64,000 bases of DNA, taken from assembly GCF_036507355.1 (NCBI RefSeq), contig NZ_AP027877.1; one strand, given 5' to 3'. This document shows, in pieces, positions 4,904-62,055 of this stretch (the stretch's first letter is position 1; the number at the start of each line of letters is the position of its first letter). The notes beneath the pieces were generated by a model that saw only the letters and a program-made list of their open reading frames with translations, made no database searches and had not been told where the DNA came from. The position numbers and the translations under genes were made by a program. The DNA comes from Escherichia coli. Its GTDB lineage: Bacteria > Pseudomonadota > Gammaproteobacteria > Enterobacterales > Enterobacteriaceae.

Positions 4904-6378
4904 CCCAGCATCGAGCCGGTTGCAATTAAATTACGGTGTAAGTCGAAGACGTGGCTAAGATCGTGGTGAATATGTCCGCCAGGCGCATTTTCCAGATAGC
5001 GATGCAGATAATCCCGATACATAGGATGTGCACAATTATCAATGATCGTGCGGGCGCGTTGAAGCGGGGAAAGACCGCGCAGATCGGCGATCCCTTGTTC
5101 GGTGATGATCACTTTGACGCTGTGTTCGCTGTGATCAACATGGCTGCACATTGGCACGACGGTTGAGATCTTGCCTTCTTTAGCAATCGATGGGGCCATA
5201 AAGATCGACAGATACGCGTTGCGTTCAAAATCACCGCTGCCGCCGATGCCGTTCATCAGATCGACCCCGGCTACGTGCGTTGAGTTGGCATGCCCGTAAA
5301 TATCAAACTCCAGGCCGACGTTCAGAGCGATGACGCCCAGACGACGGATGATTTCCGGGTTATTGGAAATCTCCTGCGGACGCAACACAATGCGGCTGGC
5401 AAAGTAATCCATATTGTCGTAAATCTTGCGCAGGGAATCGGCCGAGATTGTCAGGCTGGAGGCGCTGGCCCCGCTGATTTTGCCGGTTTCCAGTAAATGC
5501 ACCACCGATTCCTGTAGCACTTCCGAATACATCATAAACGGAGGAATTTCCGGGTTTTCCCCCAGACGCGCCATTACCGCATTATTGATATTGCCCACGC
5601 CACTTTGCAGCGGCAGAAATTCCGGCGGAATACGCCCATGCGCCATTTCCTGCAATAAGAACGTGACCACGTTATCGGCAATCTGCTGGCACATGGGATT
5701 TTGCTTATCCAGCATATTACCGGCGTCAGGCAAGTTGGTTTCCACGACGGCGACAATCTTTTTCGGATCGATTTGCACATAGCGGGTACCGACGCGATCC
5801 ATTGCATGGAAGATCGACACGCTATTGCGCCGTGGTGGCGCGCCAGGAATCACAATATCTGCCAGTTCTGCAACGCGCGGATCGTGATAGTGATTGAGTT
5901 CAATGATCACTTTCTTCGCTCGCAGCAGCCAGGTCGGCGCATTACCGATCCCGCTGGTTAACCAGACTCGACCATCTGGTGCCAGTGCCGATGCTTCAAT
6001 GACGGCAACATCAATGTCGCCGAAGAAACCGTAATTGACCATTTGCGCCACTTCGCTCAAATGCAGGTCAACGAAACTCACCGCGCCCTGATTGATCTTT
6101 TTACGTAAACCGGACGATGTTTGATATGGCGCACGCCAGGAAACAGCATCAGCGTCAGAAAGTACATCGTCAGCGGCGGCGCTGATTGACGCACCCGTCA
6201 GCAGGCGAATTTGATACGGCTTTTTAGCCTCATGCTGTTCGTTAGCTCTGCGGGCAATCGCGGTGGGTAGGGCTTTCGGTGAACCCGCTGGGGTAAAGCC
6301 GCTAAATGCCACCATGTCGTTATGCTGGATAATTTCTGCCGCTTCATCGGCGGTCATCCTTGTCCACTGAGTTTCCAT
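4900..6378 (-). CDS. scpC: Propionyl-CoA:succinate CoA transferase
   Basis: 492 aa, matches K-12 ScpC (YgfH). Confidence 0.95.
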   Translation of the reverse strand: METQWTRMTADEAAEIIQHNDMVAFSGFTPAGSPKALPTAIARRANEQHEAKKPYQIRLLTGASISAAADDVLSDADAVSWRAPYQTSSGLRKKINQGAVSFVDLHLSEVAQMVNYGFFGDIDVAVIEASALAPDGRVWLTSGIGNAPTWLLRAKKVIIELNHYHDPRVAELADIVIPGAPPRRNSVSIFHAMDRVGTRYVQIDPKKIVAVVETNLPDAGNMLDKQNPMCQQIADNVVTFLLQEMAHGRIPPEFLPLQSGVGNINNAVMARLGENPEIPPFMMYSEVLQESVVHLLETGKISGASASSLTISADSLRKIYDNMDYFASRIVLRPQEISNNPEIIRRLGVIALNVGLEFDIYGHANSTHVAGVDLMNGIGGSGDFERNAYLSIFMAPSIAKEGKISTVVPMCSHVDHSEHSVKVIITEQGIADLRGLSPLQRARTIIDNCAHPMYRDYLHRYLENAPGGHIHHDLSHVFDLHRNLIATGSMLG

Positions 6379-38338: not shown

Positions 38339-38412
38339 GCGGGCGTAGTTCAATGGTAGAACGAGAGCTTCCCAAGCTCTATACGAGGGTTCGATTCCCT
38401 TCGCCCGCTCCA
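38339..38412 (+). tRNA. glyU: tRNA-Gly (anticodon CCC)
   Basis: gcgggcgtagttcaatggtagaacgagagcttCCCaagctctatacgagggttcgattcccttcgcccgctcca. 74 nt, cloverleaf-compatible, CCA encoded. Confidence 0.95.
38390..38412 (+). repeat. attL core (glyU 3' end)
   Basis: 23 bp identical to 42585-42607. Confidence 0.85.
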
Positions 38413-38546
38413 TGACCTTTCTTAAAGTACTCCAACCTACTGAATCCTAAGGGATACGGCTTTAAGCCTTCCGCTAGTTTTACTCACTGTAACCAACACT
38501 GTAACTAAATTTGTTGAAATAGTGAGCAGACTTAAGATCTCAGTAC

Positions 38547-40178
38547 ATGCTCAACTCAAAAACCTATCTTTATCAGCGCAATGGCGTCTTTTATATCCGC
38601 CTCAGGATGAAGTCCACAGATCGCCTGACCGTTTCACATCCTTCCCATAGCCGTTATAAAATAGCGTCAGTATCACTACGGACTAAGGATAGACGTACAG
38701 CTATGGCTTACTCACGGCAAATCAAGGCAGCACTTAGGGCAATCCATGCAGACAGACCCAACGCCTCCTATGAGGAAATGAGGGAACACCTGAGGGACAT
38801 CGCAGAGTGGGAGTTGTCTACAGGTCGTTCAGACCTCTTCGAGCCAGATATGAGAGATCTATACCGTGACCAGTATGGGGAAGTGGGAGAGAATCTTGTC
38901 CATGCTCTGGCAAGCGAGCCACTGACTATTGACCAGCATCGCTATATTAATGAGGCTCTTAATGTACTCAAGGCCTGCATGAAGCGCATTGAAGCGGGAG
39001 ATAGCCAGCCACTTATAGATTATATAGATGGATTTGATGCTGCTGCTGGGGCTAATGGCCAAGCCTCTGCAACTCTATCTGTTAGTGCTCCCCAAAAAAC
39101 AAGCATTACTGAAGGCAAACACTGCGTAACCGTTGCTTCTCTCTTTGAGCAGTACGAGCAGGAAAACGCCCAGAACTGGAAGCCAGCAACATTACGAGAA
39201 AACAAAGCTTCTCATGCTGCGTTAATCGAAGTTTTTGATTATCTGGGCCTCAATGCTGACGCCAATGTGTTAGCTCGTGCGGATATGCTTAGGGTTCGGG
39301 ATATCCTCCAGCAATTGCCGAAGAATCGTAAGCAGCGTTTCAAAGATGTTCCGTTGGTTGACCTGCTAGGTCGTGAGGATAAAACCGATTGTCTGGATAT
39401 TGTTACCATCAATAATAAATATCTCATTAAGATGGCGGCTGTTTTCAAGTGGGCCGTGCGTAATGACCTGATTAAAAAGAATATGACAGAAGGGCTAGAG
39501 CTTAAGGTTCCCCAGCGTAAAGCCTCTGAGGCGCGTAATGCTTTCTCTACGGAGCAGGTAGGACAACTACTGGCTGCCGCCCAAGTTTACTCACAGAGAC
39601 CTTCTGGTAAGCCGTATCATTATTATGTTACCGCCTTGGCTGCTATCACTGGGGCGAGACTCAATGAAATAGCCCAACTACAGGTCAAAGACGTCAGGAC
39701 CACTGAGGCGGGAACCGTTTATATTCATATCAATGAAGACGATAGTAGTCTACCCGGTAAGAGCATCAAGAACGCTCATAGTGACCGCTGTGTGCCTCTG
39801 GTCGATGGGGCCTATGGTTTTATATTGGCTGACTTTATGAGGTTGGTTGAGACCCGTAGAGGCGCTGATGGTGATGACGCTATGGTGTTCGATGGTCTTC
39901 GCCTCATGAAGAACGGTTACGGTGAGCAGGTGAGTAAATGGTTTAATCGGACGTTGTTGCCTAAAGTCCTCGCAGACCGTAGCGGCTTAGCGTTTCACTC
40001 GTTTAGACATACAGTTGCGACCCAGTTAAAACAACATGGGGTCGAGTTGGCGTATGCACAGGCGATCATGGGGCATAGTTCAGGGTCTATTACTTACGAC
40101 CGTTATGCTAAAGAGGTTGAGGTTGATAGACTGGTCAATGTGATGGCTGATGTTTATAAGGAGGTTGTGGCCCCTTAA
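38547..40178 (+). CDS. Tyrosine recombinase / integrase (large, 543 aa)
   Basis: The C-terminal catalytic signature is visible: ..GARLNEIAQL.. (R), HSFRHTVATQL (HxxR), GHSSGSITYDRY (H..Y). The N-terminus YLYQRNGVFYIRLR is typical of integrase N-terminal arm-binding domains. Confidence 0.85.
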   Translation: MLNSKTYLYQRNGVFYIRLRMKSTDRLTVSHPSHSRYKIASVSLRTKDRRTAMAYSRQIKAALRAIHADRPNASYEEMREHLRDIAEWELSTGRSDLFEPDMRDLYRDQYGEVGENLVHALASEPLTIDQHRYINEALNVLKACMKRIEAGDSQPLIDYIDGFDAAAGANGQASATLSVSAPQKTSITEGKHCVTVASLFEQYEQENAQNWKPATLRENKASHAALIEVFDYLGLNADANVLARADMLRVRDILQQLPKNRKQRFKDVPLVDLLGREDKTDCLDIVTINNKYLIKMAAVFKWAVRNDLIKKNMTEGLELKVPQRKASEARNAFSTEQVGQLLAAAQVYSQRPSGKPYHYYVTALAAITGARLNEIAQLQVKDVRTTEAGTVYIHINEDDSSLPGKSIKNAHSDRCVPLVDGAYGFILADFMRLVETRRGADGDDAMVFDGLRLMKNGYGEQVSKWFNRTLLPKVLADRSGLAFHSFRHTVATQLKQHGVELAYAQAIMGHSSGSITYDRYAKEVEVDRLVNVMADVYKEVVAP

Positions 40179-40180
40179 GG

Positions 40181-40219
40181 ATGACCATAGGCGATGACCA
40201 TAGGCGATGACCATAGGCG
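40181..40219 (+). repeat. Tandem 13-bp repeat atgaccataggcg x3 (plus a partial fourth)
   Basis: Three perfect head-to-tail copies begin 3 nt after the integrase stop. Each contains the reverse complement of the CTATGGTC motif that recurs at 40239-40291 and 40821-40848. Confidence 0.9.
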
Positions 40220-40330
40220 ATGACACTTGCTACTATTCCTATGGTCCCCTTTGTGGTCCTATGTGGTCCTGTGTGACCCTTTGTGTGGTCATGTTTTGAC
40301 TCATAGTTTTCACTACTTGTCAAGCATATT

Positions 40331-40353
40331 TAATACGACTCACTATAGGGAGA
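40331..40353 (+). promoter_or_regulatory. Phage T7 RNA polymerase class III promoter consensus, 23/23 match
   Basis: TAATACGACTCACTATAGGGAGA is read directly, with an AT-rich -22..-18 region (atatt). Predicted +1 is the G at 40348. It points toward the cargo genes at 41158 and 41845. The sequence match is certain. Its function in vivo is inference. Confidence 0.85.
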
Positions 40354-40585
40354 AGGGACACAAAAAGTTTTCTCTCTCTGTCTCTCTCTATGATGACACT
40401 TGCTACTACTTCAGGTAGCTTTAACTCTAACCGTAACTTATCGCATCCTTTCAGGGGCGGGATGACCAATTACAGACACCAAGCGTTCTACTTAAAATGA
40501 ATGCTTCCTGTGTGCTCTGGGTCAGTCGATAAGTGAATAGCCTTAGACATCATATTAATTATGGTCTCTAACCCCTACAGGGGCT

Positions 40586-40729
40586 TAACTTTAAGTATTA
40601 ACTTATAGTCTACTTAAAGACACAATTAAAGATTAACTTAAAGTATTAAATTATAGATTAATTAAAGACCAATTAAAGAGTAACTTTAAGTATTAACTTA
40701 TAGTCTACTTAAAGACACAATTAAAGATT
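40586..40729 (+). repeat. Three tandem ~47-bp AT-rich iteron-like repeats
   Basis: The 49-bp string taactttaagtattaacttatagtctacttaaagacacaattaaagatt is identical at 40586-40634 and 40681-40729. A degenerate copy (40635-40680) lies between them. All are rich in TTAAAG submotifs. Confidence 0.85.
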
Positions 40730-40922
40730 GACTCTAAGGGAATACCTTAAGAGGTGATGATATTCATAATAATCAATCACCAAACCTATAGGTCTCCTCA
40801 AGGCATTACCCAGAAGCTAACTGTATGGCCCTGTATGGTCCTGTACGCCATTCTTTAGGATGCCATGTAGTTTCGTATGGCCTGATGCCTAGCGTGGCTC
40901 AGAGACCCTCCCAGTAGTAAAT

Positions 40923-40945
40923 CAATACGACTTACTAATAGGAGA
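40923..40945 (+). promoter_or_regulatory. Degenerate T7-like promoter
   Basis: caatacgacttactaataggaga matches the T7 consensus at 18/23 ungapped, or better if a 1-nt insertion near -3 is allowed. It lies 213 nt upstream of the 41158 ORF. Confidence 0.35.
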
Positions 40946-41157
40946 CACACTCCGAACCACTCACCACGTGTCTCTCAAAGTTCCACCTCTCGCGCTTCAC
41001 CATACAGTAGCTCCGCACAGCTACGACACAATCATTCATTCAATCTCAAAGTCATTCTGTTTGCATCCTGTTGTCCTGCTGGTCTCCCTTCGCTTGGGGA
41101 CTTTGAGTGGGCCAGTAGGGGGCGGTTTAGTGTGCATATTTAAAAGGTAACCAAGCA

Positions 41158-42318: not shown

Positions 42319-42584
42319 AAATTTCCCACAAAAATCTCAGTGCCTATCTAACAGTAATAACCCTGCAACATTCCCCCGTATACCTCCAGAAGTTATCCAG
42401 AAGCCGAAGTAGGTATCCTGTCATGTATTTGAATCATCAAAGTTGTTCGTTCTATTCCTCTTTAGGGAATATTACAGCCCTACAGCCTTGACCAGAGATC
42501 ACTTGATGTGTAACCATAACTGTAACCAAAAGGATTCATCATCCTTTAAGAAACAATTGGTTAGTGAGTGATTGTCTTCGATAC

Positions 42585-42607
42585 TTCGATTCCCTTCGCC
42601 CGCTCCA
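42585..42607 (+). repeat. attR of islet 1, and remnant att junction preceding island 2
   Basis: ttcgattcccttcgcccgctcca, identical to the last 23 nt of glyU. Confidence 0.85.
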
Positions 42608-42771
42608 AACTCAAGTCTCCTGAAGTCTACCAAACTCAATTTTTCCTTGATAAATCAGCAGTTATAGCTTTCTATTAGTCTATTGAACTCAATTGTACTC
42701 CCCCAGGGTCAAGCTCAATGTGGGGGTATGGATGGGGGTATAATTGTACCCCCTGCTGAGAGGTACCCCCA

Positions 42772-43998
42772 ATGAAGCTGACTGCTCGTCAGGTTGAAAC
42801 TGCGAAACCCAAAGAGAAGCCCTACAAACTGGCCGATGGTGGTGGGCTTTACCTGCTGGTTAATCCCAACGGTAAAAGATACTGGCGTCTCAAATACCGT
42901 TCGTTAGGTAAAGAGAAGCTGCTCGCTATTGGCGTTTATCCCGATGTTTCTTTAGCTGAGGCCCGAAGTAAGCGTGAGGATGCTAAAAGAACATTAGCGG
43001 CTGGCAACGATCCCTCTCTTGAACGAAAAATTGAGAAACTTAGTCGTCAACAAGACGCTGAAAACTCGTTTGAGGCTATCACACGGGAGTGGTATCAGCG
43101 TCGCTATGACCGCTGGTCTGTCTCCTACCGCGAAGAAATGCTGAGAACCTTTGAGAAAGATGTATTTCCTTATATCGGTCACAGGCCAATCAAAGATATC
43201 AAGCCGATGGAGTTGCTTGCAGTTCTTTCAAAGATAGAAGCACGAGGGGCAACAGAGAAAGTCCGCAAGGTTCGTCAGCGTTGTGGAGAGGTCTGGAAGT
43301 ATGCCGTTGTGACTGGGAGGGCCGAGTACAATCCAGCACCTGATCTAGCCAGCGCCGTGAGTCCTCATGAGAAAGAGCACTATGCTTTTTTAACCCAGGA
43401 TGAATTGCCTGAGTTTCTTCGGACTCTGAACGCCTATGCCGGTAGTGTGCTTGTTAAGATTGCGATGCAATTGCTCATTTTAACAGGAGTAAGGCCAGGG
43501 GAGTTGAGGCAAGCGGAGTGGCAGGAGTTTGATTTTGAGAAAAAGGTTTGGAATGTACCAGCGGAACGTATGAAAATGCGCCGCCCTCATCTTGTTCCAT
43601 TATCAAGCCAGGCAATTGACCTGCTTAATCAACTTAAACCCATAACGGGAGCAGGAGCGTTATTATTCCCAGGACGTAATAATCCTAAGAAACCGATGAG
43701 CGATATGGCATTGACTGTGTTGGTCAGGCGTATCGGCTATGCCGGGCGCGTTACAGGGCATGGATTCCGCCACACGATGAGTACCATTTTGCATGAGCAG
43801 GGATTCAACTCGGCCTGGATTGAGTTACAGCTGGCTCACGTCGATAAGAACTCAATTCGTGGGACGTATAACCATGCTCAATATTTGGAAGGTCGGCGGG
43901 AGATGATGCAGTGGTATGGAGATTTCATCGGTCAAGCAGGCAAATCCGGATCATCGCTAGCTTATGCAGCTATTAGCTTGACTGCTGAATTAGAGTGA
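42772..43998 (+). CDS. P4-family tyrosine integrase
   Basis: 408 aa. The N-terminus MKLTARQVETAKPKEKPYKLADGGGLYLLVNPNGKRYWRLKYR is typical of the DUF4102 arm-binding domain. Catalytic residues: GVRPGELRQ (R), HGFRHTMST (HxxR), IRGTYNHAQY (Y). Confidence 0.9.
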   Translation: MKLTARQVETAKPKEKPYKLADGGGLYLLVNPNGKRYWRLKYRSLGKEKLLAIGVYPDVSLAEARSKREDAKRTLAAGNDPSLERKIEKLSRQQDAENSFEAITREWYQRRYDRWSVSYREEMLRTFEKDVFPYIGHRPIKDIKPMELLAVLSKIEARGATEKVRKVRQRCGEVWKYAVVTGRAEYNPAPDLASAVSPHEKEHYAFLTQDELPEFLRTLNAYAGSVLVKIAMQLLILTGVRPGELRQAEWQEFDFEKKVWNVPAERMKMRRPHLVPLSSQAIDLLNQLKPITGAGALLFPGRNNPKKPMSDMALTVLVRRIGYAGRVTGHGFRHTMSTILHEQGFNSAWIELQLAHVDKNSIRGTYNHAQYLEGRREMMQWYGDFIGQAGKSGSSLAYAAISLTAELE

Positions 43999-44008
43999 GA
44001 AGGGGCAA

Positions 44009-44039
44009 GTTGAGCCTCTTCGCTGAGAAGAGGCTCAAC
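44009..44039 (+). terminator. Hairpin after the integrase
   Basis: gttgagcctcttc-gctga-gaagaggctcaac, a 13-bp stem. A T7 run lies 10 nt downstream. Confidence 0.5.
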
Positions 44040-44195
44040 GTGAACCTATTTTTTTGGGAGTTAATACTTTTTGCAATTTTTTTTTTCGTGCCGTTGGATG
44101 TAAAGATCTGTGGGGGTTAGGGAAGAAAATCATGCTATGTTAGTCTTTGAGGAGTGAGTCAAAATGTTATAACTTTTTCAAAGAGGCGTTACATC

Positions 44196-45131
44196 GTGAA
44201 AGTCGTTTTTAATGTTAATGGTAAAAAAGTTCCGCTCAAATCTCTGCAATATATAAGTAAAGCAAATCAACTCGAAGTTATGCGGAATTGGTTTTTTGAG
44301 AATTTTGAAGATCCCGCGAACTCTTGCCCGTATGAATCCCGTGAAGGCGGGTATGCTTACATTTATGGGGGCCCATACGAAGCAAGTGAAGAGTTGCAAG
44401 CGATGTTTGAAGGACACGTGAAATTTGATTATATCCAAGAATTAGTCAATGAATTACAAGAACAGTGCTATGAATGGTCTGGTAATTCAAATAATATTAA
44501 TGATTGGTACGATGAAGACTTGTATGATGCTGTTACATCTTCTGAACATCCTTTTTCTAAGTTCGTTGAAAGCATTGATGGAATAAAATTGCTGTCTAAA
44601 GGCGAATTTAAAGATAAACAAAAAGATCATCTGCTTAGCATCCTATATATTAATGTCATTACAGCCCTGGAAACACTTTATGTTGAGTTATTTATTAACT
44701 CTATAGATAAAAACGACTCATATCTTGCTGACTTTATAGAAAAAGGTAAGACGGAATTTAAGGTAAATAAAGGAATATTGGCTTTGCCATTCAAAGGAGA
44801 AACTATTGAAAACATGAGGGCGCAATTAATTAAGGTAATTAAAGAGCATTTGATTAGTGCAAGTTGGCATAGTACAAACAAAGTTGTAGGACGTTATAAA
44901 GCTACATTTGATATAAAAGTACATAAAGAGTGGCCAATAGATGTGATCGAAATAGCAACTCAAAAGCGTAATCATTTAGTCCATCGTGGCGGGAAAGATA
45001 AAGAAGGTAATTCGGTAGTGATTACTGAACAGGATTTAGAAATGTTGCTGGATCACGCACAATCTCTTGGAGAAAAATTGTTTGATAGCCTTGAGGTGGC
45101 ATTACAGAAAAAAGATGAGAATGAATTTTGA
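44196..45131 (+). CDS. Candidate HEPN-domain (Rx4H) protein; the track ORF begins at 44154
   Basis: GTG at 44196 is preceded by aagagg at good spacing. The C-terminal region contains ..ATQKRNHLVHRGGKD.. (R-N-x-x-x-H), the hallmark HEPN RNase motif. The N-terminal domain is unassigned. Confidence 0.4.
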   Translation: MKVVFNVNGKKVPLKSLQYISKANQLEVMRNWFFENFEDPANSCPYESREGGYAYIYGGPYEASEELQAMFEGHVKFDYIQELVNELQEQCYEWSGNSNNINDWYDEDLYDAVTSSEHPFSKFVESIDGIKLLSKGEFKDKQKDHLLSILYINVITALETLYVELFINSIDKNDSYLADFIEKGKTEFKVNKGILALPFKGETIENMRAQLIKVIKEHLISASWHSTNKVVGRYKATFDIKVHKEWPIDVIEIATQKRNHLVHRGGKDKEGNSVVITEQDLEMLLDHAQSLGEKLFDSLEVALQKKDENEF

Positions 45132-45206
45132 GTCTCGGGGTAGGTTGATAGTGCTACCGATAACGAGCAAGCAAATGATACTCGGCAGGCAGTGCCTGCC
45201 GGAGGA

Positions 45207-46910
45207 TTACTTTTTACTTCCAAATTGAATGCCGAGAAGTTTATTCTCTGCTTTATCGCCACGTAGAGTAAGAACAATTTTTGATTTCAGTTCTAACATT
45301 TCGATTTCAGATAAAGTTGTTTCCATAGCATTAAAGTTTTCAGTGTTTAAAGATGCTATATATTGCTTTCCGCTTCGTTTTAATGACTGATTGACAAATG
45401 AGAACCATCTTGCGCGAACACCTGGATCTATATCAGCAAAAAGACGGTTATCATGCCATAGCATATCCATGGCATGGTTTTCACCACATGTAAATACTAA
45501 CCAGTCAAAGCATAATATCCTAGCATCATTGATCCCATCCGAATCATCACCCTCGATTTGGATGCTTAGATCATAACGAATTTTGTTGTCACCAGTATTA
45601 ACATCCAAAACTATTCCTGCTGGTACCCTTGGGTACATTATTTCTGCGAGCTCAGCAAAAATTTTATCGTATTCTGAAAGAGGATTTGTAGAAGCATAGT
45701 TTACCGCTAATCTGTCTTGTTCAACTTTTCGTTCTCTTAGATTTTGAGCTTTCTGTTGAAGGTTAATAGAAAAATTTAAATAATCATGTAACCTTTCTTT
45801 TTCTTCTTTAAATTCAGCTAGTTGTCTAGCTATGACTGCGTATTCATCAAATGCTTTCTTGCCTTGCAGGGATTCCAAATATGAATCACGTAATGCTGAA
45901 ATATCCTTAATGTCAATTTTAAGAGATTCAATTTCTAACAAAAGTTTTACTTTATCATTTTCAAGTCTTTTCTTTCTGTTAAAAGATAATGATTTGTGAA
46001 AATTTTCAACTGACTCAAAATGGGCCAATGTTTCTGGCTTGAAAATCTCTTGTAAGCCATTGTACAGTTCAAGAAGCTCTTCTCTTGAAATGTCAGGGTG
46101 TTCTAATAAAGTTTTTTCTATATTATTTACTTTAAATTCAGCTATATTTTTGTTTTTTTCAACTTCTCGTAATTTTATAGTTAAACTGTTTGTTTCATTC
46201 TCAATAGCTCTGTATTGCTCGTGAACTTGAAATGCATTCAGTTCATCCTGCAGTCTTGGGATCTCTCTTTCTAGCCACTCATAGCGTACTTTAGGTTGAG
46301 AGCCTGCTCTAAACATGTCTTTTAGAATATCATCGTCTTGCCAATTTTTTAGCGATTGACTTACTTTATCCAGCTCTTGCTTATTATTTCTTTTAGATAA
46401 TATTAAATTATGATCTATACCGAGAAGAAATGCGGTACGAAGCAATGCTTCAAAGTCTTGCTCCTTTTTTGTCCTAGTTGGACTGATGCAGTCATCTCTG
46501 GTATATCGCGAAAAACGCTTAAATAAAGATCTGAATGATAAATACGGAATGTTATTCTCAAGATTAAATATTCCTATTTTATCTAATAAATCTTTAAATG
46601 CTTTTAAAGATATTGTTTTGTCATTTAATAATAATTTTTTTCCATTGCCCGTTCTAGATATTAAGTACTCAACTCCATTATGAGAAAAAAGTAAAGAGAA
46701 CCACCAATCTGGAACTGCTGAAGTTAATTTTTTATCAGCATTAGCTCCTAAACAATGTTGAATGAGACCGAGAATAAGTGTCTTACCGACTCCGTTACTA
46801 CTGCCTTCTTTTTCTTTAGAGCTATCACCAATGATCAACGTTAGTCCTGTATCATTGAAATGCACTGGATGAAAAGTTGGCTGATCGCAAGTTAAGCGAA
46901 TTAACTTCAT
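45207..46910 (-). CDS. SMC/ABC-type ATPase with coiled-coil insert (LmuB / ABC-3C ATPase-like, DUF2326-like)
   Basis: 567 aa. Walker A is SSNGVGKT. There is a long K/E-rich coiled-coil middle, and the C-terminal block is ..DDSDGINDARILCFDWL... Its start codon abuts the stop of the upstream small ORF (taaATG). Confidence 0.6.
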   Translation of the reverse strand: MKLIRLTCDQPTFHPVHFNDTGLTLIIGDSSKEKEGSSNGVGKTLILGLIQHCLGANADKKLTSAVPDWWFSLLFSHNGVEYLISRTGNGKKLLLNDKTISLKAFKDLLDKIGIFNLENNIPYLSFRSLFKRFSRYTRDDCISPTRTKKEQDFEALLRTAFLLGIDHNLILSKRNNKQELDKVSQSLKNWQDDDILKDMFRAGSQPKVRYEWLEREIPRLQDELNAFQVHEQYRAIENETNSLTIKLREVEKNKNIAEFKVNNIEKTLLEHPDISREELLELYNGLQEIFKPETLAHFESVENFHKSLSFNRKKRLENDKVKLLLEIESLKIDIKDISALRDSYLESLQGKKAFDEYAVIARQLAEFKEEKERLHDYLNFSINLQQKAQNLRERKVEQDRLAVNYASTNPLSEYDKIFAELAEIMYPRVPAGIVLDVNTGDNKIRYDLSIQIEGDDSDGINDARILCFDWLVFTCGENHAMDMLWHDNRLFADIDPGVRARWFSFVNQSLKRSGKQYIASLNTENFNAMETTLSEIEMLELKSKIVLTLRGDKAENKLLGIQFGSKK

Positions 46911-47216
46911 TTAACTTTCCTTATTTTTTAATTTGTCATAATTGCAACAGATTGGCATTATTCTGTTTTCATTATCTAGCGTTATTTGTTTGATGCAAAA
47001 AAGAATGTCTACGGCAAGTATAAATTGTGTAAAAGAGGGCGTGATTATCGTTGATTTATTTTTCCGCTCTATTTTTGTCCATAGTTCTTCTATGGATACC
47101 GGTCCATCAATTAACGAACGGATGTATCCTGCAATCGCAATTAGGGAGTTACTAAACCTAACATGCTTATGTGGCAGAAGCATTGCTTGGATGTTCATAA
47201 GCATCACATGTCTCAA
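46911..47216 (-). CDS. Small middle-component-like protein (LmuC / ABC-3C MC-like); possibly the 3' part of a frameshifted ~148-codon gene
   Basis: 101-aa ORF with a TTG start, translationally coupled to the ATPase. A 62-aa ORF in another frame (47167..47355) fills the gap back to the upstream gene. Confidence 0.4.
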   Translation of the reverse strand: MRHVMLMNIQAMLLPHKHVRFSNSLIAIAGYIRSLIDGPVSIEELWTKIERKNKSTIITPSFTQFILAVDILFCIKQITLDNENRIMPICCNYDKLKNKES

Positions 47217-47390
47217 AATATTTAGCTAAAATTAACTCTGCAGCAAATCGATAACTCGCGACCGCACTTGTGGGAACTTGCGGGGGAAGGAGTTTATCTA
47301 TCATCCAAGTATATCTTAAATCTGCATAATTGTGGTTATCTTCAGTTATCGCCAATTTACTTTTTGCATAAGTATCTCTAACTTCTTGAG

Positions 47391-48173
47391 CTATAGTTTG
47401 TTCAAGACCACAAGACCATTATCAACAGAATCTAAAAATTCATTTATCAAATATAGTTGATAGCTAAAAGATTCCAGCCTGCTTTTTATTGGTTTTGTAA
47501 TACCATTTATTTTTATTTTATCTTCGAAGTCCGGGGCTGTTTCACTTAAAAAATTCATGGGTGAAGAAGATTTTTGTGCTAAAAAAGTCAATACTTCACC
47601 AACAGCTCGAGTATCTGTAAAGTCTAAATTAACCTCAGGAATGAAACCTACAATATCTTGCTTTTCACCCTCGGATAATGACATAAACTTTTGAAGGAGC
47701 TCCATCCCACCCATTGCACCTGCGTGATTAAGACTTTTACTGATTGCAAGTGTATTTAATGAAAGTCCAACAGGTGCTGGAATACCCTTGAAATAATCAT
47801 TCATTACAAAAGTATATTTTGATACTTTCCCCCATTTGGCGACTAATTTATCAAAGTCGCCAATCGATTTATTAACAGCTTCTAGCTCTTTGGTTTGATT
47901 TGAAGGTTTAGGTCCATAAACTTGGAAGTAATGAGCCTCATGAGCAATCCACCCATCATTCCCGCCATCTCCCCAGTTTCCCCAAGGGGAAACAGCTTGA
48001 AAGCCAGGAGTCGCGTATTGCATAACCTTCGAAAAAAGCGCCTGAAAACTGTCTCCCATACATTCATGTACTTTTAACCGAAAGAACTGTCTGTAGAGGT
48101 AATCTTGCTGTGTCGAACTCATTTTCCTCTCATCCATGATGAACACTTTTGATGATAATATCCTCTCATTCAT
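47391..48173 (-). CDS. Putative effector of the three-gene system, with an N-terminal Mrr-like PD-(D/E)xK motif (LmuA-like); start may be M18
   Basis: 260 aa. The GNWGDGGNDGWI motif resembles the GDGGIDG motif of the Mrr catalytic domain. The C-terminal half is helical. It is the first gene of the operon. Confidence 0.4.
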   Translation of the reverse strand: MNERILSSKVFIMDERKMSSTQQDYLYRQFFRLKVHECMGDSFQALFSKVMQYATPGFQAVSPWGNWGDGGNDGWIAHEAHYFQVYGPKPSNQTKELEAVNKSIGDFDKLVAKWGKVSKYTFVMNDYFKGIPAPVGLSLNTLAISKSLNHAGAMGGMELLQKFMSLSEGEKQDIVGFIPEVNLDFTDTRAVGEVLTFLAQKSSSPMNFLSETAPDFEDKIKINGITKPIKSRLESFSYQLYLINEFLDSVDNGLVVLNKL

Positions 48174-48282
48174 TGTTGTAAACCTATGATTAGCAAAATT
48201 GGAGATGCTTTCACTTTAGAGTTGGTATCTAAAGGTTATAAATTATCAAAACAGGTTGTATAGATATCAAATTGAATACGAT

Positions 48283-48310
48283 TTGACATATATGTTAATC
48301 TGATTAGTAT
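48283..48310 (+). promoter_or_regulatory. Putative ars promoter
   Basis: TTGACA-N16-TAGTAT, located ~25 nt upstream of the arsR ATG. Confidence 0.4.
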
Positions 48311-55812: not shown

Positions 55813-56790
55813 TCACTCTAATGCTTTTTGAGCAGCAAGTTCAAGTTCACTTTTTCCATGAAGTGCCAAAGACATATGGCATTCCGCTAGAAGGCAATAA
55901 CATTCTGTTTTTAGCGTCTGTATATCACTTTTATTTTGTAATCCATCAAATATAGTCATGGCCCTGTAAATGCTTTCAGGGGTGAACTCGTAAAGTTCTT
56001 TCTTTCCGGCTAACATTTCATCTGATAAATAATGATTCTTATATCCTTGGTCCTGCTTAGCTAATCTTACAGATCGTTCTGGTTTATGTACCGTTTGAAG
56101 GATATTATCTATAATAAATTGTGATGTATTATGTAGTTCATCAACAGGGAGATGATTACTGGCGATGAGGAAAAGGTTTTTAGCGTCGATCAACTCAATG
56201 TATAAAGTGTTCACTGCATTATTCTGGTTTATTCTTCCTGTAACGAAATAATCTGGCTTGAATCTGCTCAAGAATGAATTTTGAGATATGTGGTCATTAC
56301 AAAAATTTGTCGCAGCCATCGGATAGGTATAGAGACCATCGATTTTTTTATTTGAAATGATTTGTACTAATTCCTGATTAAGTATTAATGGATCCAGTGT
56401 ATTCAATGAAGTGGTGAAAGGGAATATAGCTATGGAATAGTCTGAAGTATTATCTTCATTAATTTTAGTTTTGAAAACCTGCCCGCTGAAACGATAACCT
56501 TTCCGGTAGATTGTTTCTATGCAGCGATCATAGCCAATTTTTTCAAAAATGCAGCGCAAAGAATAGATACATCTTGTCAGGGACTCGTCACTAACAATAA
56601 TATTTTTCCATACTGATTCGATGATCATATCTTTCAGTACAACATGACCAGCGGATTCAAGTAATACTATTAATACACCTAACTCTTTCGGTGGAATATA
56701 AACTTGCTCATTTCCTTGAGTAAGAATTCCATCTTCCGTGAGCGTTAATCCCTCAAGAAAATGATATGAGAATTTATTTTCTAAGTCCAT
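55813..56790 (-). pseudogene. ygeH: ETT2 HilA-like regulator YgeH, 3'-truncated by the IS (325 of ~458 codons)
   Basis: [25 protein letters not shown].. with an OmpR/ToxR-type winged helix. The ORF's stop codon TGA (55813-55815) is supplied by the IS terminus. Confidence 0.85.
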
Positions 56791-57123
56791 TAGTTAACCT
56801 CTATGAAAAAATTGGTTTCTTGCATCCTGCATAAGCAATAGAAATTATGGCTATTCATATTTATATGTCATTAACGCTACAGGAGTTTACATTCGACATA
56901 TCTATGGTTGTGTTCACTAATTTATCTTAGGAATTCAGTGATGTAATCTGAAATAGCCTTATTCAATTTTGATAAAGTAAAATGCTCTCTAAAGCATTGA
57001 AAAATAATGATTTATTGTATGCTCTTAACTGTTTTAAGATGCTGATTTAAGAAAAGATAAGAGGTGCTGGTTATAGTGGTTAATGCACTATAACCAGCAA
57101 TTTTAACCAAATGATTGTAATGC

Positions 57124-57615
57124 TTAGTTATTATCTTCTGAATTATCGGTTAAGAGTTCGACATATGCCTGCGCTTTACTCTTAACACTATCATCCTCAC
57201 AATTGTTAATAATATGAAAGAAACATTGCATTGCGTTATCGATATTTTTAGCCCCAATTTGACATTGACCCATACGATAAATAACTGAATAGTCATCATA
57301 TGGCGAGTAATTATAACTTAGCTTGTAAAGGTCATATGCTTGTTGATATTTCTTTTTTGACTGACATACTGATGCAAAACCTTTTAGATATTCATGATTT
57401 TCGAACGCATAAATGCACAATAATTTATAATAAATTTCTGCCTCCGTTATATTACCCTTTTCATGGTAGTCGAATGCATATGCATATATTCTATCAAGGA
57501 TATCAGGAGTCAAACCATGTAGTAATGCCAGATTTTCTCCTTTCGATAATGCGTGTTTTAGTTGATTTGCCCATTCATCACTATTATTGAATATTTCAAT
57601 TGTTTCTGTGTCCAT
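57124..57615 (-). CDS. ygeG: ETT2 class II T3SS chaperone (TPR, SicA/LcrH-like)
   Basis: 163 aa, matches K-12 YgeG. Confidence 0.9.
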   Translation of the reverse strand: MDTETIEIFNNSDEWANQLKHALSKGENLALLHGLTPDILDRIYAYAFDYHEKGNITEAEIYYKLLCIYAFENHEYLKGFASVCQSKKKYQQAYDLYKLSYNYSPYDDYSVIYRMGQCQIGAKNIDNAMQCFFHIINNCEDDSVKSKAQAYVELLTDNSEDNN

Positions 57616-57861
57616 AATATTCCTCTGTGATGTGTCTCGTGATGCTAAATTATTATTGATTGACTCATTAATATTTCTACATTTATCTTTTTTAAATTAT
57701 GAGTTTTAAGCTTGCATTGCTTATGAGTATATTTCTTCATTATTAGTAAAATTACTGTCCACTACAAACTAATTACATTATTAGTTATTTTGATAATATT
57801 CACCTTATTAGTAATCTTAATTACGACATTCCATAAATGCCTTAATGTGCATGACCATGAT

Positions 57862-58266
57862 TCATATTATCAATTTCCATTTTTCGATCAAAATTAAAAA
57901 GGGGATTTTTGCGAAGGGGCGAATGTCGTTTGTTTTTTTTTCTTTATTATGTCTGGTGATGAGGGGGGATAGAACGTCGGTGCATATAGTAGAGAATTTA
58001 TCCAGGTCTAAATTATTCTCTATTTTGGTCAGTTTTATGAGTTCATTTGTAGCCATACTCATTAAATCATCTGTTATCGGAAATTTATATATGCTCATAG
58101 CAGATAATATTGCTTGCTGAATTATTTCTTCAGAAAAATCCGCTATCTTTATTGACAAATCATGTATTTGATATTTTCCTCCAAGAGATTCTTGTTCAAT
58201 ATAATTTAAACCAGACCTCATAGTAATTTTAACTGGATTAACGAATTTTTCTTCATTTTTCTTCAT
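57862..58266 (-). CDS. ygeF: ETT2-associated small protein, ygeF-like
   Basis: 134-aa ORF at the position of K-12 ygeF, in very AT-rich DNA. Confidence 0.55.
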   Translation of the reverse strand: MKKNEEKFVNPVKITMRSGLNYIEQESLGGKYQIHDLSIKIADFSEEIIQQAILSAMSIYKFPITDDLMSMATNELIKLTKIENNLDLDKFSTICTDVLSPLITRHNKEKKTNDIRPFAKIPFLILIEKWKLII

Positions 58267-58771
58267 TTTTCTTATTTTTGTTCTCCTGATCAGGAACTAA
58301 TGGTTGCAGTGGTAGGCTATTATTAATATTTCGTGGCTTCATTTTACATTTCTCTCATTTGATTAGAGCAAAATCCGAACTCGCAGCTTCTGATAATGTC
58401 AAATATCACCTTTTCTCATACTTTATTCTATCAAAAATCGCTCATTTTTACTTTTTTTACCATAATGTTACTTTGTAGCATCGGCAATTTACATAACTTA
58501 CACGTTGTTTTTTATATCCTGAAAAAACAGATAGATAGTGTGCGCACTCGAAATGATATTGGTAACATAAATAGCTTTATTCGTGATAAACATCTCAAAA
58601 GATTTCCTTTATTATATTCGAAATTCATTTGATCAAGGTTATCACCTTATGGAGACGTTACGTAGAATGACTATATTTGTTATCGGCACATTAGGGGTAT
58701 TAATTTTAGTATTGATGGAAGGTGATTATTGAACAGTAACATCGAGTCACGGTAAAAATGTGAGGTATATA

Positions 58772-59197
58772 ATGGATATTGAGTTTTCGCAGATTCATGA
58801 AATGGTCTATATGCATGATATTGTAAATTCGGACTCGAAAAAGAAACCAAGGATTCCGTTAAAAAAATTCCTTAATGCTGAGAAGGTTCTCACGCAAACA
58901 ACATCATGGGCATTAAATTCAAGATATGTGAATGTTAATTCTGTTAATAATGCCAACGTAAAGAGTAAAGTTAAAAACAGTTATATCTCACGATCTGTCA
59001 ATGATGAGTTTAGTTTAACAGATGATGAAATCAATTCTTTTAAAGAAACGTTAGTCCTTTCCTCTATTGATTCACTGAGTAAACTGGTTCTTAATAATCC
59101 TCTTTCTGTATTGTTTACTTCGACTGTACGAAGGAATAATAATCGAGCTAAGATGAATGTAGAGTTCGACTCATGGATTTGCACCAGATGTTGTTGA
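58772..59197 (+). CDS. yqeK: Uncharacterised protein YqeK
   Basis: 141 aa from [16 protein letters not shown]... Position and orientation are as in K-12. Confidence 0.7.
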
Positions 59198-59345
59198 TAC
59201 ATGATATTTTACATTGCAAGGGGATGTCTGAAATGAAAGATGTTGATCAAAACTTTGATGCTTTAGACTGCCATATACTGCAAGCATATTTAATTTTATT
59301 GTTTTATGATTAACGAGGTTCCATCTTTTTGTTATCTATTTTAGT

Positions 59346-59840
59346 TTACCTTGCACAATGCATTATTGCTCTGTTACCAATACTCAAAATAAAAGCATGC
59401 TTACCTTGCTTTAGTATATTATAGCTTACACTTTTTTCTGGAAAGACATAAAAATCAGGAATAAGTTCTGCAAGTCTATCATCATCGACTTGATCCATAA
59501 TCTCAAACTTATTAACTTTCTTTGATGTTAAATGGGCTGTGTCATAGTTTTCAACCCATGTGTATTCAATATTTCGCCGTATTGATTTACTTTCTCTGTT
59601 ACCTTGTTGCCAGGTTCCACTCAACGCAACAGTTCCTGTTTTATTTTTTTGGTTATACATAAAGTCGATAGTAAGATTTGCTCGCCCCTGGTCATTAAAA
59701 ATTACCCAATTTGCAGTGCATGTCTCATTATATATCATTTTTTCTGCAGTGTAAGAATAGACAGTGAAGAGAATAAACCCACTGATAAAAACTAAAATAA
59801 ATAATAAGTTTTTTTTATAATCAATCACGATTAACCTCAC
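59346..59840 (-). CDS. yqeJ: Uncharacterised membrane-anchored protein YqeJ
   Basis: 164-aa ORF with an N-terminal TM segment. Overlaps the yqeI 3' end by 20 nt. Confidence 0.8.
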   Translation of the reverse strand: MRLIVIDYKKNLLFILVFISGFILFTVYSYTAEKMIYNETCTANWVIFNDQGRANLTIDFMYNQKNKTGTVALSGTWQQGNRESKSIRRNIEYTWVENYDTAHLTSKKVNKFEIMDQVDDDRLAELIPDFYVFPEKSVSYNILKQGKHAFILSIGNRAIMHCAR

Positions 59841-60630
59841 GGTAAGACAGGGTTAAACAGCCTGCCACTTCATGTTGGTTATAGTTTTTATTGCATGCCA
59901 TAACAATCATCCCCGGTGAGGATTTTGCAAGAGGGAAGTATAACCACGGATATTTTTTACAGTTAATCCCCGAATCCAATATCCGTGTTTTATATTTATC
60001 GAACTCTTTCAACCCATCAATTGTATCTTCTGTTACATTAAAATGGCAGCCATTAATTTCCGCAACAATCTTGTAATCCTTGAAAAATGGCTTCGGTTGA
60101 TTATTATTCCATAGCCAATATGCAAAATATGCGCCTATGACAAATGCGCTCAACATAATTAGATGACTTTTTATATGTTTGAGGATTTTGTTATTGAAAT
60201 TCTTTGCGCCACCAATGCTCTCTTTGTATCCCGCATTAACTTTTATGGCCGGTGGGGTATTGTGTGTATGTGCGTCTGTTGACGAGTTTATTACATGATT
60301 TTGTATGTTAATGTCATTATGGATCTTGAATCCTCTTCTCGGCACGGTTGCAATAAGTGAGTGGGTAGTATCACCAACAGCGCGAAATCCGCGTCTGATA
60401 ATGGATATGTTCTGATATAACGTGTTAGTTGGCACACGCATACCTTCTTCTTCCCAGACTCTGGTGAAAAAATCTTGTTGTGCAACCACATCAGGAAAAG
60501 CTTCAAGTAGAAGGGATAAACAACGACTGGCTGGCGTTGTCAGAACGACGTTAAGATCGGCGTTATGTACCGATATTAATTTTCGGTGCTCAGGCCAGAA
60601 CTCGATATTATCGTTAATAATCCAGTACAT
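59821..60630 (-). CDS. yqeI: ToxR/CadC-like membrane-anchored transcriptional regulator
   Basis: 269 aa with an N-terminal winged-helix domain (..RVPTNTLYQNISIIRRGF..) and one TM segment. Matches K-12 YqeI. Confidence 0.9.
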   Translation of the reverse strand: MYWIINDNIEFWPEHRKLISVHNADLNVVLTTPASRCLSLLLEAFPDVVAQQDFFTRVWEEEGMRVPTNTLYQNISIIRRGFRAVGDTTHSLIATVPRRGFKIHNDINIQNHVINSSTDAHTHNTPPAIKVNAGYKESIGGAKNFNNKILKHIKSHLIMLSAFVIGAYFAYWLWNNNQPKPFFKDYKIVAEINGCHFNVTEDTIDGLKEFDKYKTRILDSGINCKKYPWLYFPLAKSSPGMIVMACNKNYNQHEVAGCLTLSYREVNRD

Positions 60631-60963
60631 ACGTCAATAAACACTAAATCAATCGAAATGGAAATCACATAGTTTGCTAAGTATATTGGTATTTACGGCA
60701 TAAATATATATTAATTTTATATTTATCATGATGATTGAAATGAGGCTTTAATGGCGCAACGTAAAACTTTATATAAATTAACATGGTTAACATTTATGCC
60801 ACTATTGTTGATAAATTCATATTTCGTAATGCTTCTGAATTTTTCGTGTGATGGTTTTAAATACTATGTTGTTTACTCTTGGGGTTACTGCTTATTTATA
60901 AAATACGGGCATTCCAATAGATGCCCGTATAAGCAGAGTATGATTCTGGCAGATCGTTGAGTA

Positions 60964-61596
60964 TTAATGTTGGACCGAATGTGAACGAATAAATAACTCG
61001 TTTATTTTACCACCCATTCTCTTTTCGATTCGTTGCTTGTACGCGTAGATGCTACGGATATCCATATCCAGAACTTCAGTAATCTGATATGGGTTATAAC
61101 CAGAAACCATATACCCCATTATGGTGAATTCCATCTGAGTTAATGTGTTACCTCTGGTAAATGATAAATAACGACCAATAAATAGTTGTCTGATCTTTTC
61201 ATTGGCAACATCAAGACCATCATCATTATATATGACAGCAGATATTGCAGAGTTGTGCTTTCGCCAGTAGTTAGCTAACGATTGCATATTGCGGTCGCTG
61301 ACTAAAACAATCCCCATGTCAGTACTTGCAAGATAGTCAATCCAGTCTTTTTCAAGGAATAGACGTAAAAAACTTACTGAAAAATCGACAAAAATATATC
61401 CGCTTAATCTCGCATTGTGGTTTTTTGTTAAGATACCTTCCACCACACCACGATTAAAATATGAACTTTCTTCGGGCCACATACAAAAACACGAGTTTGC
61501 GCAATACTGAAAACGCGGTGACTCTTCTGGCATTATTTGGCAATGCATTGAGCAACTATTGCATGTAAGACTTTTATAACGACTACAAAGCCCCAT
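60964..61596 (-). CDS. yqeH: LuxR-type HTH regulator YqeH
   Basis: 210 aa from MGLCSRYKSLTC... C-terminal LuxR/GerE HTH (LTQMEFTIMGYMVSGYNPYQITEVLDMDIRSIYAYKQRI). Confidence 0.85.
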   Translation of the reverse strand: MGLCSRYKSLTCNSCSMHCQIMPEESPRFQYCANSCFCMWPEESSYFNRGVVEGILTKNHNARLSGYIFVDFSVSFLRLFLEKDWIDYLASTDMGIVLVSDRNMQSLANYWRKHNSAISAVIYNDDGLDVANEKIRQLFIGRYLSFTRGNTLTQMEFTIMGYMVSGYNPYQITEVLDMDIRSIYAYKQRIEKRMGGKINELFIRSHSVQH

Positions 61597-62055
61597 GTTA
61601 AGAACCTCCCTATCCGTATATAATTGCATAATTTCATTGGTTATTGATGATGTCAATACACCATGATTTTGTAATGTTGCTGGGAAAAATTGCGATTAAT
61701 CTGTATTTGCTATAATTCTGATTAAGACATTTAAAAATGCATTTCTCGTTATTAAATATGATTATGTTTCACTGATTTAATCTTGCATGGTTGAGAGTGG
61801 TCCAGATAACTATCTCATGGTATGAGAATATCTATATCGCAAATTGTTTTTGAATGACCAGAAGATATCTTGCGAATCTAAGTTATGCATCTTAAATAGT
61901 CTTATTTAAGATGTTCAGATCTCTTTGTGTGTTTAACTAACTGATAATTCTAGGATATGATGAGAGAAGTGATAGGGCGGAATAATAACAAATGAACATT
62001 ATGAAAAATGGAATGGTTCAAAATTGTAGTAATTTTGAACCATTCACAATGGATA

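Follow-up and report, generated by a model that had tools for sequence, protein, structure and literature searches.

In a 64,000-nucleotide stretch of the Escherichia coli chromosome, referred to here as the window, a 4.2-kb island integrated at tRNA-Gly(ccc) carries two phage-type promoter sequences in the same orientation ahead of its cargo genes. The first, P1, is a perfect T7 class III promoter. The second, P2, is from its sequence probably a genuine but crippled promoter copy that occupies the slot of a downstream promoter, with P1 doing the work. Taken alone, P2 is a familiar type of promoter in mutated form and probably contributes little. Together with P1 and the intact arrays of relatives, it marks a widespread family of islands with cargo under promoters of virulent T7-like phages, and this family is a more interesting result than P2 itself.

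The features of the island are collected in Table 1. Its genes are all on the + strand, and no third copy of the 23-mer that forms attL and attR occurs in the window. A further 12-bp repeat, CACTGTAAC(C/T)AA, is found at 42518-42529 adjoining attR, and the 12-bp repeats are likely arm-type integrase sites flanking the core. The integrase, whose relatives are annotated as "site-specific integrase", is separated from the KilA-N-like gene by about 980 bp of non-coding DNA comprising, in this order, 13-bp repeats, 10-bp repeats, P1, CB1 and CB2, the AT-rich repeats, the inverted repeat, a second set of 10-bp repeats, P2 and a conserved leader. An Rfam search returned tRNA only. The entire 981-bp non-coding region had no BLAST match among 50,697 phage records and is thus not a piece of a known phage. 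CB1 recurs as an exact 25-mer in islands of E. coli, Klebsiella and Rouxiella. The inverted repeat is common to the window lineage and L005/L013 (related loci are given by L numbers), which also have a downstream promoter; an apparent similarity of this repeat to T7 39277-39365 (34 bits) was rejected as being within the shuffle range.

Table 1. Features of the tRNA-Gly(ccc) island in window coordinates.
Feature	Coordinates	Strand	Evidence and remarks
tRNA-Gly(ccc), integration target	38339-38412	+	ARAGORN, Rfam tRNA
attL	38390-38412	+	3´ 23 nt of the tRNA; direct repeat D4, exact-match search
12-bp repeats CACTGTAAC(C/T)AA, two in tandem	38485-38508	+	Repeat family D5
Tyrosine integrase, 543 aa, long N-terminal region	38547-40178	+	Pfam Phage_integrase 2.2e-18; PHROG 1 integrase 2.6e-42
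Three exact tandem 13-bp units GATGACCATAGGC	40180-40224	+	Repeat family D3
10-bp repeats, core TGTGGTCC, upstream of P1	40239-40282	+	Repeat family D2, alignment; copy number strain-variable
P1, perfect T7 class III consensus (23/23)	40331-40353	+	Predicted start G 40348
CB1	40440-40464	+	Conserved non-coding block downstream of P1
CB2	40520-40541	+	Conserved non-coding block downstream of P1
AT-rich 48-bp repeats (three), rich in (A/C)TTAAAG	40586-40738	+	Repeat family D1
Imperfect inverted repeat AGAGGTGATGATATT...AATCAATCACC	40750-40782	+	
Second set of 10-bp repeats CTGTATGGCCCTGTATGGTCCTGT, about 80 bp upstream of P2	40821-40844	+	Repeat family D2
P2, CAATACGACTTACTAATAGGAGA followed by CACAC	40923-40945	+	Equals CAATACGACTTACTAAT + AGGAGA
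Conserved structured leader (HP)	41059-41139	+	Directly upstream of the ribosome-binding site of cargo gene 1
Cargo gene 1, KilA-N-like DNA-binding protein, 187 aa	41158-41721	+	PHROG 129 "transcriptional regulator" 7.8e-10
Cargo gene 2 (ORF2), 157 aa	41845-42318	+	25 homologues, restricted to Enterobacterales
attR	42585-42607	+	Exact 23-bp copy of the tRNA 3´ end

The repeats beside the two promoters vary among strains. The copy number of the 10-bp set ahead of P2 differs in L003, L004 and L056. TGGTC, a recognition site of the T7 gene 4 primase, is the conserved core of the tandem repeats beside both promoters (40180-40300 and 40821-40844). Near P1 there are three copies on the - strand and four on the + strand, and P2 is preceded by one; the numbers vary among strains. 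An exact 17-bp direct repeat, GATGACACTTGCTACTA, flanks the P1 module in the window (40219-40235 and 40392-40408), and in strain MARGA_3 this module is duplicated (L003 3228 and 3346), so that promoter modules may be gained and lost like cassettes. Following attR, a second, unrelated island lies in tandem at the regenerated tRNA end (42608-48300), with a P4-type integrase (42772-43998), a HEPN/RES-NTD1-like protein (44154-45131) and DUF2326/ABC-three-component proteins on the - strand. The G+C content is 32-36% at 44000-48000 and 56000-62000, compared with about 50% in the rest of the window.

That P2 has not arisen by chance follows from its agreement with the T7 consensus TAATACGACTCACTATAGGGAGA, its matrix scores and its similarity to P1. 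The ungapped agreement of 18/23 reported in an earlier note on this DNA was confirmed in the sequence, with mismatches at -17, -7, -2, -1 and +1. A match of at least 18/23 has a probability of 1.3e-7 per position, corresponding to a chance expectation of 0.016 for both strands of the whole window and of 1e-4 for one strand of the 830-bp intergenic stretch. Scored with a matrix from 17 T7 promoters, P2 reaches 24.7 bits, where natural T7 promoters have 26.0-39.2 bits and the next best site in the 64 kb has 4.0 bits. With a matrix from BA14 promoters it scores 27.3 bits, inside the range of the natural BA14 promoters, and the next best background site scores 13.5. A repeat finder returned P1 and P2 as a 22-nt direct repeat (82%) on the same strand, 592 bp apart and with P1 upstream. 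P1 is the only site in the window within three mismatches of the T7 consensus (0 in 100 shuffles) and is identical to T7 phi6.5, phi9, phi10, phi13, phi17 and phiOR over -17 to +6. The argument that two co-oriented promoters are no coincidence therefore stands: P2 is far beyond expectation and on the same strand as a perfect P1. P2 lies outside all ORFs of at least 40 aa, 141 bp past the inverted repeat and 114 bp ahead of the leader, and a sigma-70 scan found no host-type promoter near it. Its predicted start, if any, is A 40940 or G 40941.

The closest counterparts of P2 are promoters of Berlinvirus, represented by BA14. Ungapped, P2 matches BA14 phi1.1 (CAATACGACTCACTAAT + GGGAAA) and phi9 (TAATACGACTCACTAAT + GGGAGA) at 20/23 each; the latter form, with T at -1, is that of the promoters of BA14, Kvp1, 285P, FE44 and Berlin-type phages. 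From -16 to -8, P2 reads AATACGACT, identical to the T7 consensus and covering the specificity region CGACT (-12 to -8), and BA14 promoters share with P2 both this segment and the TAAT at -4 to -1. The latter is the melting segment, AT-rich as the promoter class demands (TATA, TAAA, TATT or TAAT). TAAT is found in BA14 phi1.1, 1.3, 2.5, 4.3, 4.7 and 9 and in many T7-like phages, and T at -1 is general among BA14 promoters and present in many T7-like phages. A sister island carries CAATACGACTCGCTAATGGGAGA, so that the TAAT form exists inside the island family as well. The C at -17 recurs in T7 phi1.1A and phi4c and in BA14 phi1.1, phi13 and phi17. P2 differs from the Berlinvirus promoters in its A at +1 and in its T at -7, a base found at this position in none of the BA14 or T7 promoters, and these promoters belong to phage genomes, whereas P2 sits in a bacterial island.

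Among T7 promoters, the best BLAST match of P2 in phages is phi1.1A at 85.7%, with none closer. T7 phi4.3 shares the downstream sequence GGAGACACAC with P2 and aligns at 25/27 with a one-base gap. The earlier note likened P2 to phi1.6 with one substitution and an extra base near -3. This was mistaken, since GGAGACACAC follows phi4.3, the closer of the two, whereas phi1.6 continues GGAGACACTA, and the match to phi4.3 requires two substitutions (-17 and -7) in addition to the insertion. A T7-type polymerase sets the start of transcription by the distance from its binding region, and the gapped alignment displaces this start. The extra base is also unneeded, because TAAT at -4 to -1 is normal in BA14, Kvp1, 285P and Berlin-type promoters. 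As to the first transcribed nucleotide, T7 phi2.5 and phiOL begin with A, like P2 (A at +1, then GGAGA); the sequence AGGAGAGACA of phiOL is close to AGGAGACACA of P2, and the combination of T at -1 with A at +1 occurs naturally in phi2.5. P2 is an evolutionary relative of the T7-group promoters, and the description that fits it best is that of a Berlinvirus-type promoter altered by -7 C>T and +1 G>A.

The main support for P2 being a promoter relative rather than a coincidence comes from its position in a family of islands. The non-coding or inter-promoter region finds matches in about 350 of 5,426 complete E. coli genomes, and relatives of the integrase were found in Klebsiella, Citrobacter, Pectobacterium, Buttiauxella, Shimwellia, Enterobacter, Rouxiella, Serratia and Shigella. 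In 16 of the 18 complete islands examined, the integrase is followed by phage-type promoters on the + strand; of the other two, L012 has a near-consensus T7-like TAATACGACTCACTAAG + GGGAGA, and in L030 the copies are all eroded. The promoters have CACTATAGGGAGA-like cores and differing segments at -17 to -8, and the 10-nt core has a density of 0.95 per kb in the post-integrase zone vs 0.02 per kb elsewhere. Their types match T7, K11 (AATTAGGGCACACTATAGGGAGA), KP32-like Przondovirus (about 12 matches per phage genome) and K1F-like phages such as Dev2 and SFPH2. Some upstream promoters are eroded or variant (L030 3337 and 3447; L026 3445; L025 3552) and read TAATACGACTCAGTATGGGGAGA, CAATACGACTCGCTAATGGGAGA, TAATACGACTCGCTAAAGGGATA and ...CACTATAGAGAGA. 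The -6G and -5G changes in such variants are tolerated forms, the former retaining about 28% (Komura data, PMC5937735) and the latter being the natural form of T7 phi1.3.

Upstream, the promoters are clustered; most lineages also have a downstream cluster, placed 150-450 bp before the conserved leader. In Klebsiella pneumoniae ATCC 13883 and E. coli ESY001, for instance, K11 + T7 + K11 make up the upstream cluster and a KP32-type promoter lies downstream, and such differences in polymerase specificity between downstream and upstream promoters (e.g. KP32-type after K11/T7) are seen in some of the related islands. P2 has the position of the downstream cluster, being on the + strand, between the AT-rich and inverted repeat region and the leader, and ahead of the first cargo gene. 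Equivalent downstream promoters are found in L005/L013, L016-L019 and L022; L014 and L020/L021 also have them, in the absence of the shared leader or inverted repeat. Those of L016 and L018 are intact although they duplicate upstream specificities, which indicates that the position is normally functional and that P2 may retain function.

The lesions of P2 can be read directly from its sequence. The invariant core CACTA (-7 to -3) reads TACTA in P2. The C at -7 is present in all annotated promoters of T7 (17/17) and BA14 (16/16) and in every other promoter type of the island family (K11, KP32-type and K1F-type). Among the differences of P2, T at -7 is the one for which natural variation offers no counterpart. 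In structures of the T7 polymerase-promoter complex, R746 reads the -7 base pair. This residue, together with N748, R756 and Q758 of the T7 specificity loop, is kept in the BA14 polymerase, and the Berlinvirus enzyme is for this reason not expected to rescue P2. The effects of the individual substitutions have been measured in a screen of T7 promoter variants with a wild-type score of 169 ± 19 (Komura et al., 2018; PMC5937735, S2 file). In the same data file, -7T scores 0.907 (0.54% of wild type) and -7A 0.054 (0.03%), while -1T scores 73 (43%), +1A 68 (40%), -17C 149 (88%) and -2A 161 and 138 (about 88%). By our own estimate, the product of the five single-variant effects for P2 is about 0.07% of consensus, a multiplication that ignores epistasis and uses single-barcode values obtained in vitro with T7 polymerase only. 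With -7 C>T and +1 G>A striking positions of recognition and initiation, P2 is expected to be very weak or dead for T7-type polymerases, at a predicted level of roughly 0.1% of consensus. The earlier suspicion that P2 is degenerate and possibly inactive is supported, but the -7 C>T change, counted there as an ordinary substitution, is the disabling one.

The lesions are shared by the copies found. All 56 copies of P2, from 51 E. coli genomes and five metagenome contigs, have -7T and +1A; the contigs came from a metagenome scan in which -7 and -2 to +1 were left free, and no intact ancestor was found. The sole point difference among the 51 E. coli copies is in NCTC10973 and falls inside P2, at +2 (G>T). 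Furthermore, the upstream half of P2 (-19 to -10) is a 10-bp unit, AATCAATACG, that occurs in one, two, three or four tandem copies depending on the strain (variants in L003 3900-3945, L004, L056 2470-2525 and L059-L061). Such a substitution at +2 and slippage of 10 bp are as expected for a relaxed site. The surrounding 400-bp segment is nearly invariant among close relatives, so that the constancy of P2 says little about selection.

The main alternative, which we consider unlikely, is that P2 is deliberately attenuated yet functional, so that upon infection the KilA-N-like gene and ORF2 would be expressed at a low level without the help of P1. The reason for attenuation could be that the products are harmful at high dose, or that P1 transcripts are processed or used otherwise, e.g. 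for priming replication. In an infected cell with abundant polymerase, a promoter of 0.1-0.5% strength could matter for a toxic product. This possibility draws on the rule of intact downstream promoters in the family, on the invariance of the 56 copies, on a score within the BA14 range and on the succession of P1 and an origin-like AT-rich region. It also draws on a candidate stem at the 5´ end of an RNA initiated at P2 (40941-40975, + strand; 8 bp, GGAGACAC / GUGUCUCU), with a predicted RNAfold energy of -10.4 kcal/mol (z = -1.95; 6/200 shuffles equally good), which as a folding prediction lends weak support to initiation at this site. It is at odds with the activity left by -7T alone and the absence of this base from natural T7 and BA14 promoters. 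Sister islands, moreover, manage without a proximal promoter, no terminator is seen between P1 and P2, and the single polymorphism strikes +2.

Specificity for a different polymerase, as raised in the earlier note, fares considerably worse. We consider it very unlikely that P2 serves an unsampled T7-like phage whose polymerase accepts or prefers T at -7. The family does collect promoters of varied specificities, but the region from -16 to -8 of P2 is identical to T7, such that only -7 would differ, and the C at this position is common to T7, BA14, K11, KP32-type and K1F-type promoters, with R746 kept in the BA14 polymerase. No phage with repeated -7T promoters of the P2 kind was found in INPHARED or IMG/VR, and IMG/VR scans for ACGACTTACTAATAGG and GACTTACTATAGGGAGA gave only five and three single hits, respectively, on unrelated contigs. 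Finally, that P2 lacks promoter ancestry or acts as DNA only, be it as a recombination partner of P1 in promoter-cassette exchange or as a polymerase decoy, is highly improbable: the 22-nt repeat shared with P1 could support recombination, and the P1 module, which occurs twice in L003, has direct repeats on both sides, but the chance expectation is 1e-4, position and orientation match the intact promoters of relatives, and -7T should weaken binding by the polymerase too.

With P2 as a crippled copy in the downstream slot and P1 as the working promoter, the following scheme can be proposed. The non-coding region and the cargo of the island would be controlled by promoters that the single-subunit RNA polymerases of T7-like phages recognise, and transcription would therefore be switched on only after infection by such a phage. 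The KilA-N-like gene and ORF2 would be transcribed mainly by read-through from P1 at 40331, to which P2 would add a trickle at most. Polymerase-dependent induction, read-through from P1 and the size of the residual P2 activity are inferred here, while the sequence relationships, the positional homology and the lesions with the measured effects of the single mutants are shown. No terminator-like hairpin was found on the + strand between P1 and the cargo, and the class II pause signal ATCTGTT is absent from the + strand downstream of P1 within the island. Three related islands (L026, L027 and L028) have the same leader and two upstream promoters but no proximal one, which implies that read-through from the upstream cluster is the ordinary route to the cargo and that P2 is dispensable in principle. 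L026 and L027 also share the KilA-N-type gene.

As to the cargo itself, the product of gene 1 has a Pfam KilA-N match that falls below the cutoff (9.5e-4), and RefSeq calls close homologues KilA-N domain-containing. ORF2 has no hit in Pfam, PHROG, PADLOC or NCBIfam, and its AlphaFold2 model (pLDDT 45.8) is unusable. The leader in front of the cargo is an irregular hairpin of about 85 nt that is found also at L005 3785-3875, L016 9225-9305 and in other relatives. It contains a 16-mer, CCTGCTGGTCTCCCTT, that is exact in at least six genera, and RNAalifold predicts 26 pairs, seven of them with compensatory changes. The leader has no counterpart in Rfam and may serve as an RNase III site, such as T7 mRNAs contain, or in the control of translation. 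The leader region alone (41049-41136) has matches of about 83% in many E. coli genomes without the remaining non-coding region, including O157- and O111-type strains, a sign that further islands or remnants bearing this leader may exist at the locus.

The stretch downstream of P1 may have an additional role. In T7, a replication origin consists of a T7 promoter followed by an AT-rich region, with phi1.1A/B as the primary and phiOL as a secondary origin. The island has the same arrangement in P1 and its AT-rich repeats, the best matches of which are exactly those AT-rich regions in T7 (408-498, after phiOL, and 5927-6017, after phi1.1B) and BA14 (406-465, after phiOL). With about 70% over 60-100 nt, the similarity is modest; the top local alignment scores 42.5 bits, compared with a mean of 25.4 and a maximum of 38.3 in 200 dinucleotide shuffles. 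By analogy, P1 and the AT-rich repeats may be a candidate T7-type origin, such that the phage replication machinery may copy the island. P2 differs in being located beyond the AT-rich region and pointing away from it.

A broader reading can be offered tentatively, and we regard it as possible rather than probable: the islands may be mobile elements that parasitise or defend against virulent T7-like phages and detect them through interchangeable arrays of promoters for the polymerases of these phages (T7, Berlinvirus, K11, KP32 and K1F types), with P1 and the AT-rich region as an amplifying origin and P2, on account of its -7T, as a very weak promoter tuned to set the cargo dose and not debris. 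If true, this would amount to sensing of infection by promoter mimicry, and the promoter types would record the phage genera met by each host lineage. In the literature searched, we found no description of phage-polymerase promoter arrays in tRNA-Gly islands.

A link to a known system is that some family members carry the characterised anti-T7 gene RAZR. In many relatives, a DUF4145 gene overlaps the stop codon of the integrase upstream of the promoter array. That of L005 (L005 2155-2787), the only one tested, is PD-T7-4 by PADLOC (8e-99), and RAZR/PD-T7-4 (zinc-finger + DUF4145/HEPN) is listed in L005, L027, L028, L030 and L016 (7602-8255). PD-T7-4, now called RAZR, acts against T7 as an RNase, with phage portal proteins as its trigger (Vassallo, 2022, PMC9519451; Nature 2026, PMC13017515), and the text of these reports, as searched, makes no mention of integrase-linked promoter arrays. 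Relatives thus carry the gene right after the same type of integrase, whereas the island in the window is without RAZR: it has no ORF between the integrase and P1, and PADLOC gave no PD-T7-4 hit among its ORFs.

The island also invites comparison with phage satellites (P4, PICI, PLE and PICMI). Like these, it is a small island of co-oriented genes with an integrase at a tRNA gene (543 aa, exact 23-bp attL and attR, 4.2 kb), it has anti-phage cargo in relatives, and its expression appears from the promoter sequences to be tied to infection by a specific group of phages. The terminal repeats and concatemer junctions of T7 and BA14, the two phages compared, did not align to the island, and packaging mimicry is accordingly unsupported. 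Relatives of the integrase in IMG/VR were rejected as evidence of packaging, being provirus predictions from isolate genomes and not virion DNA. In contrast to the satellites, the island is without capsid, terminase or primase genes and would sense its helper by means of promoters for the polymerase of the helper rather than through a repressor-antirepressor pair. On these comparisons of sequence and organization, it may be a satellite, an infection-triggered defence island, or both.
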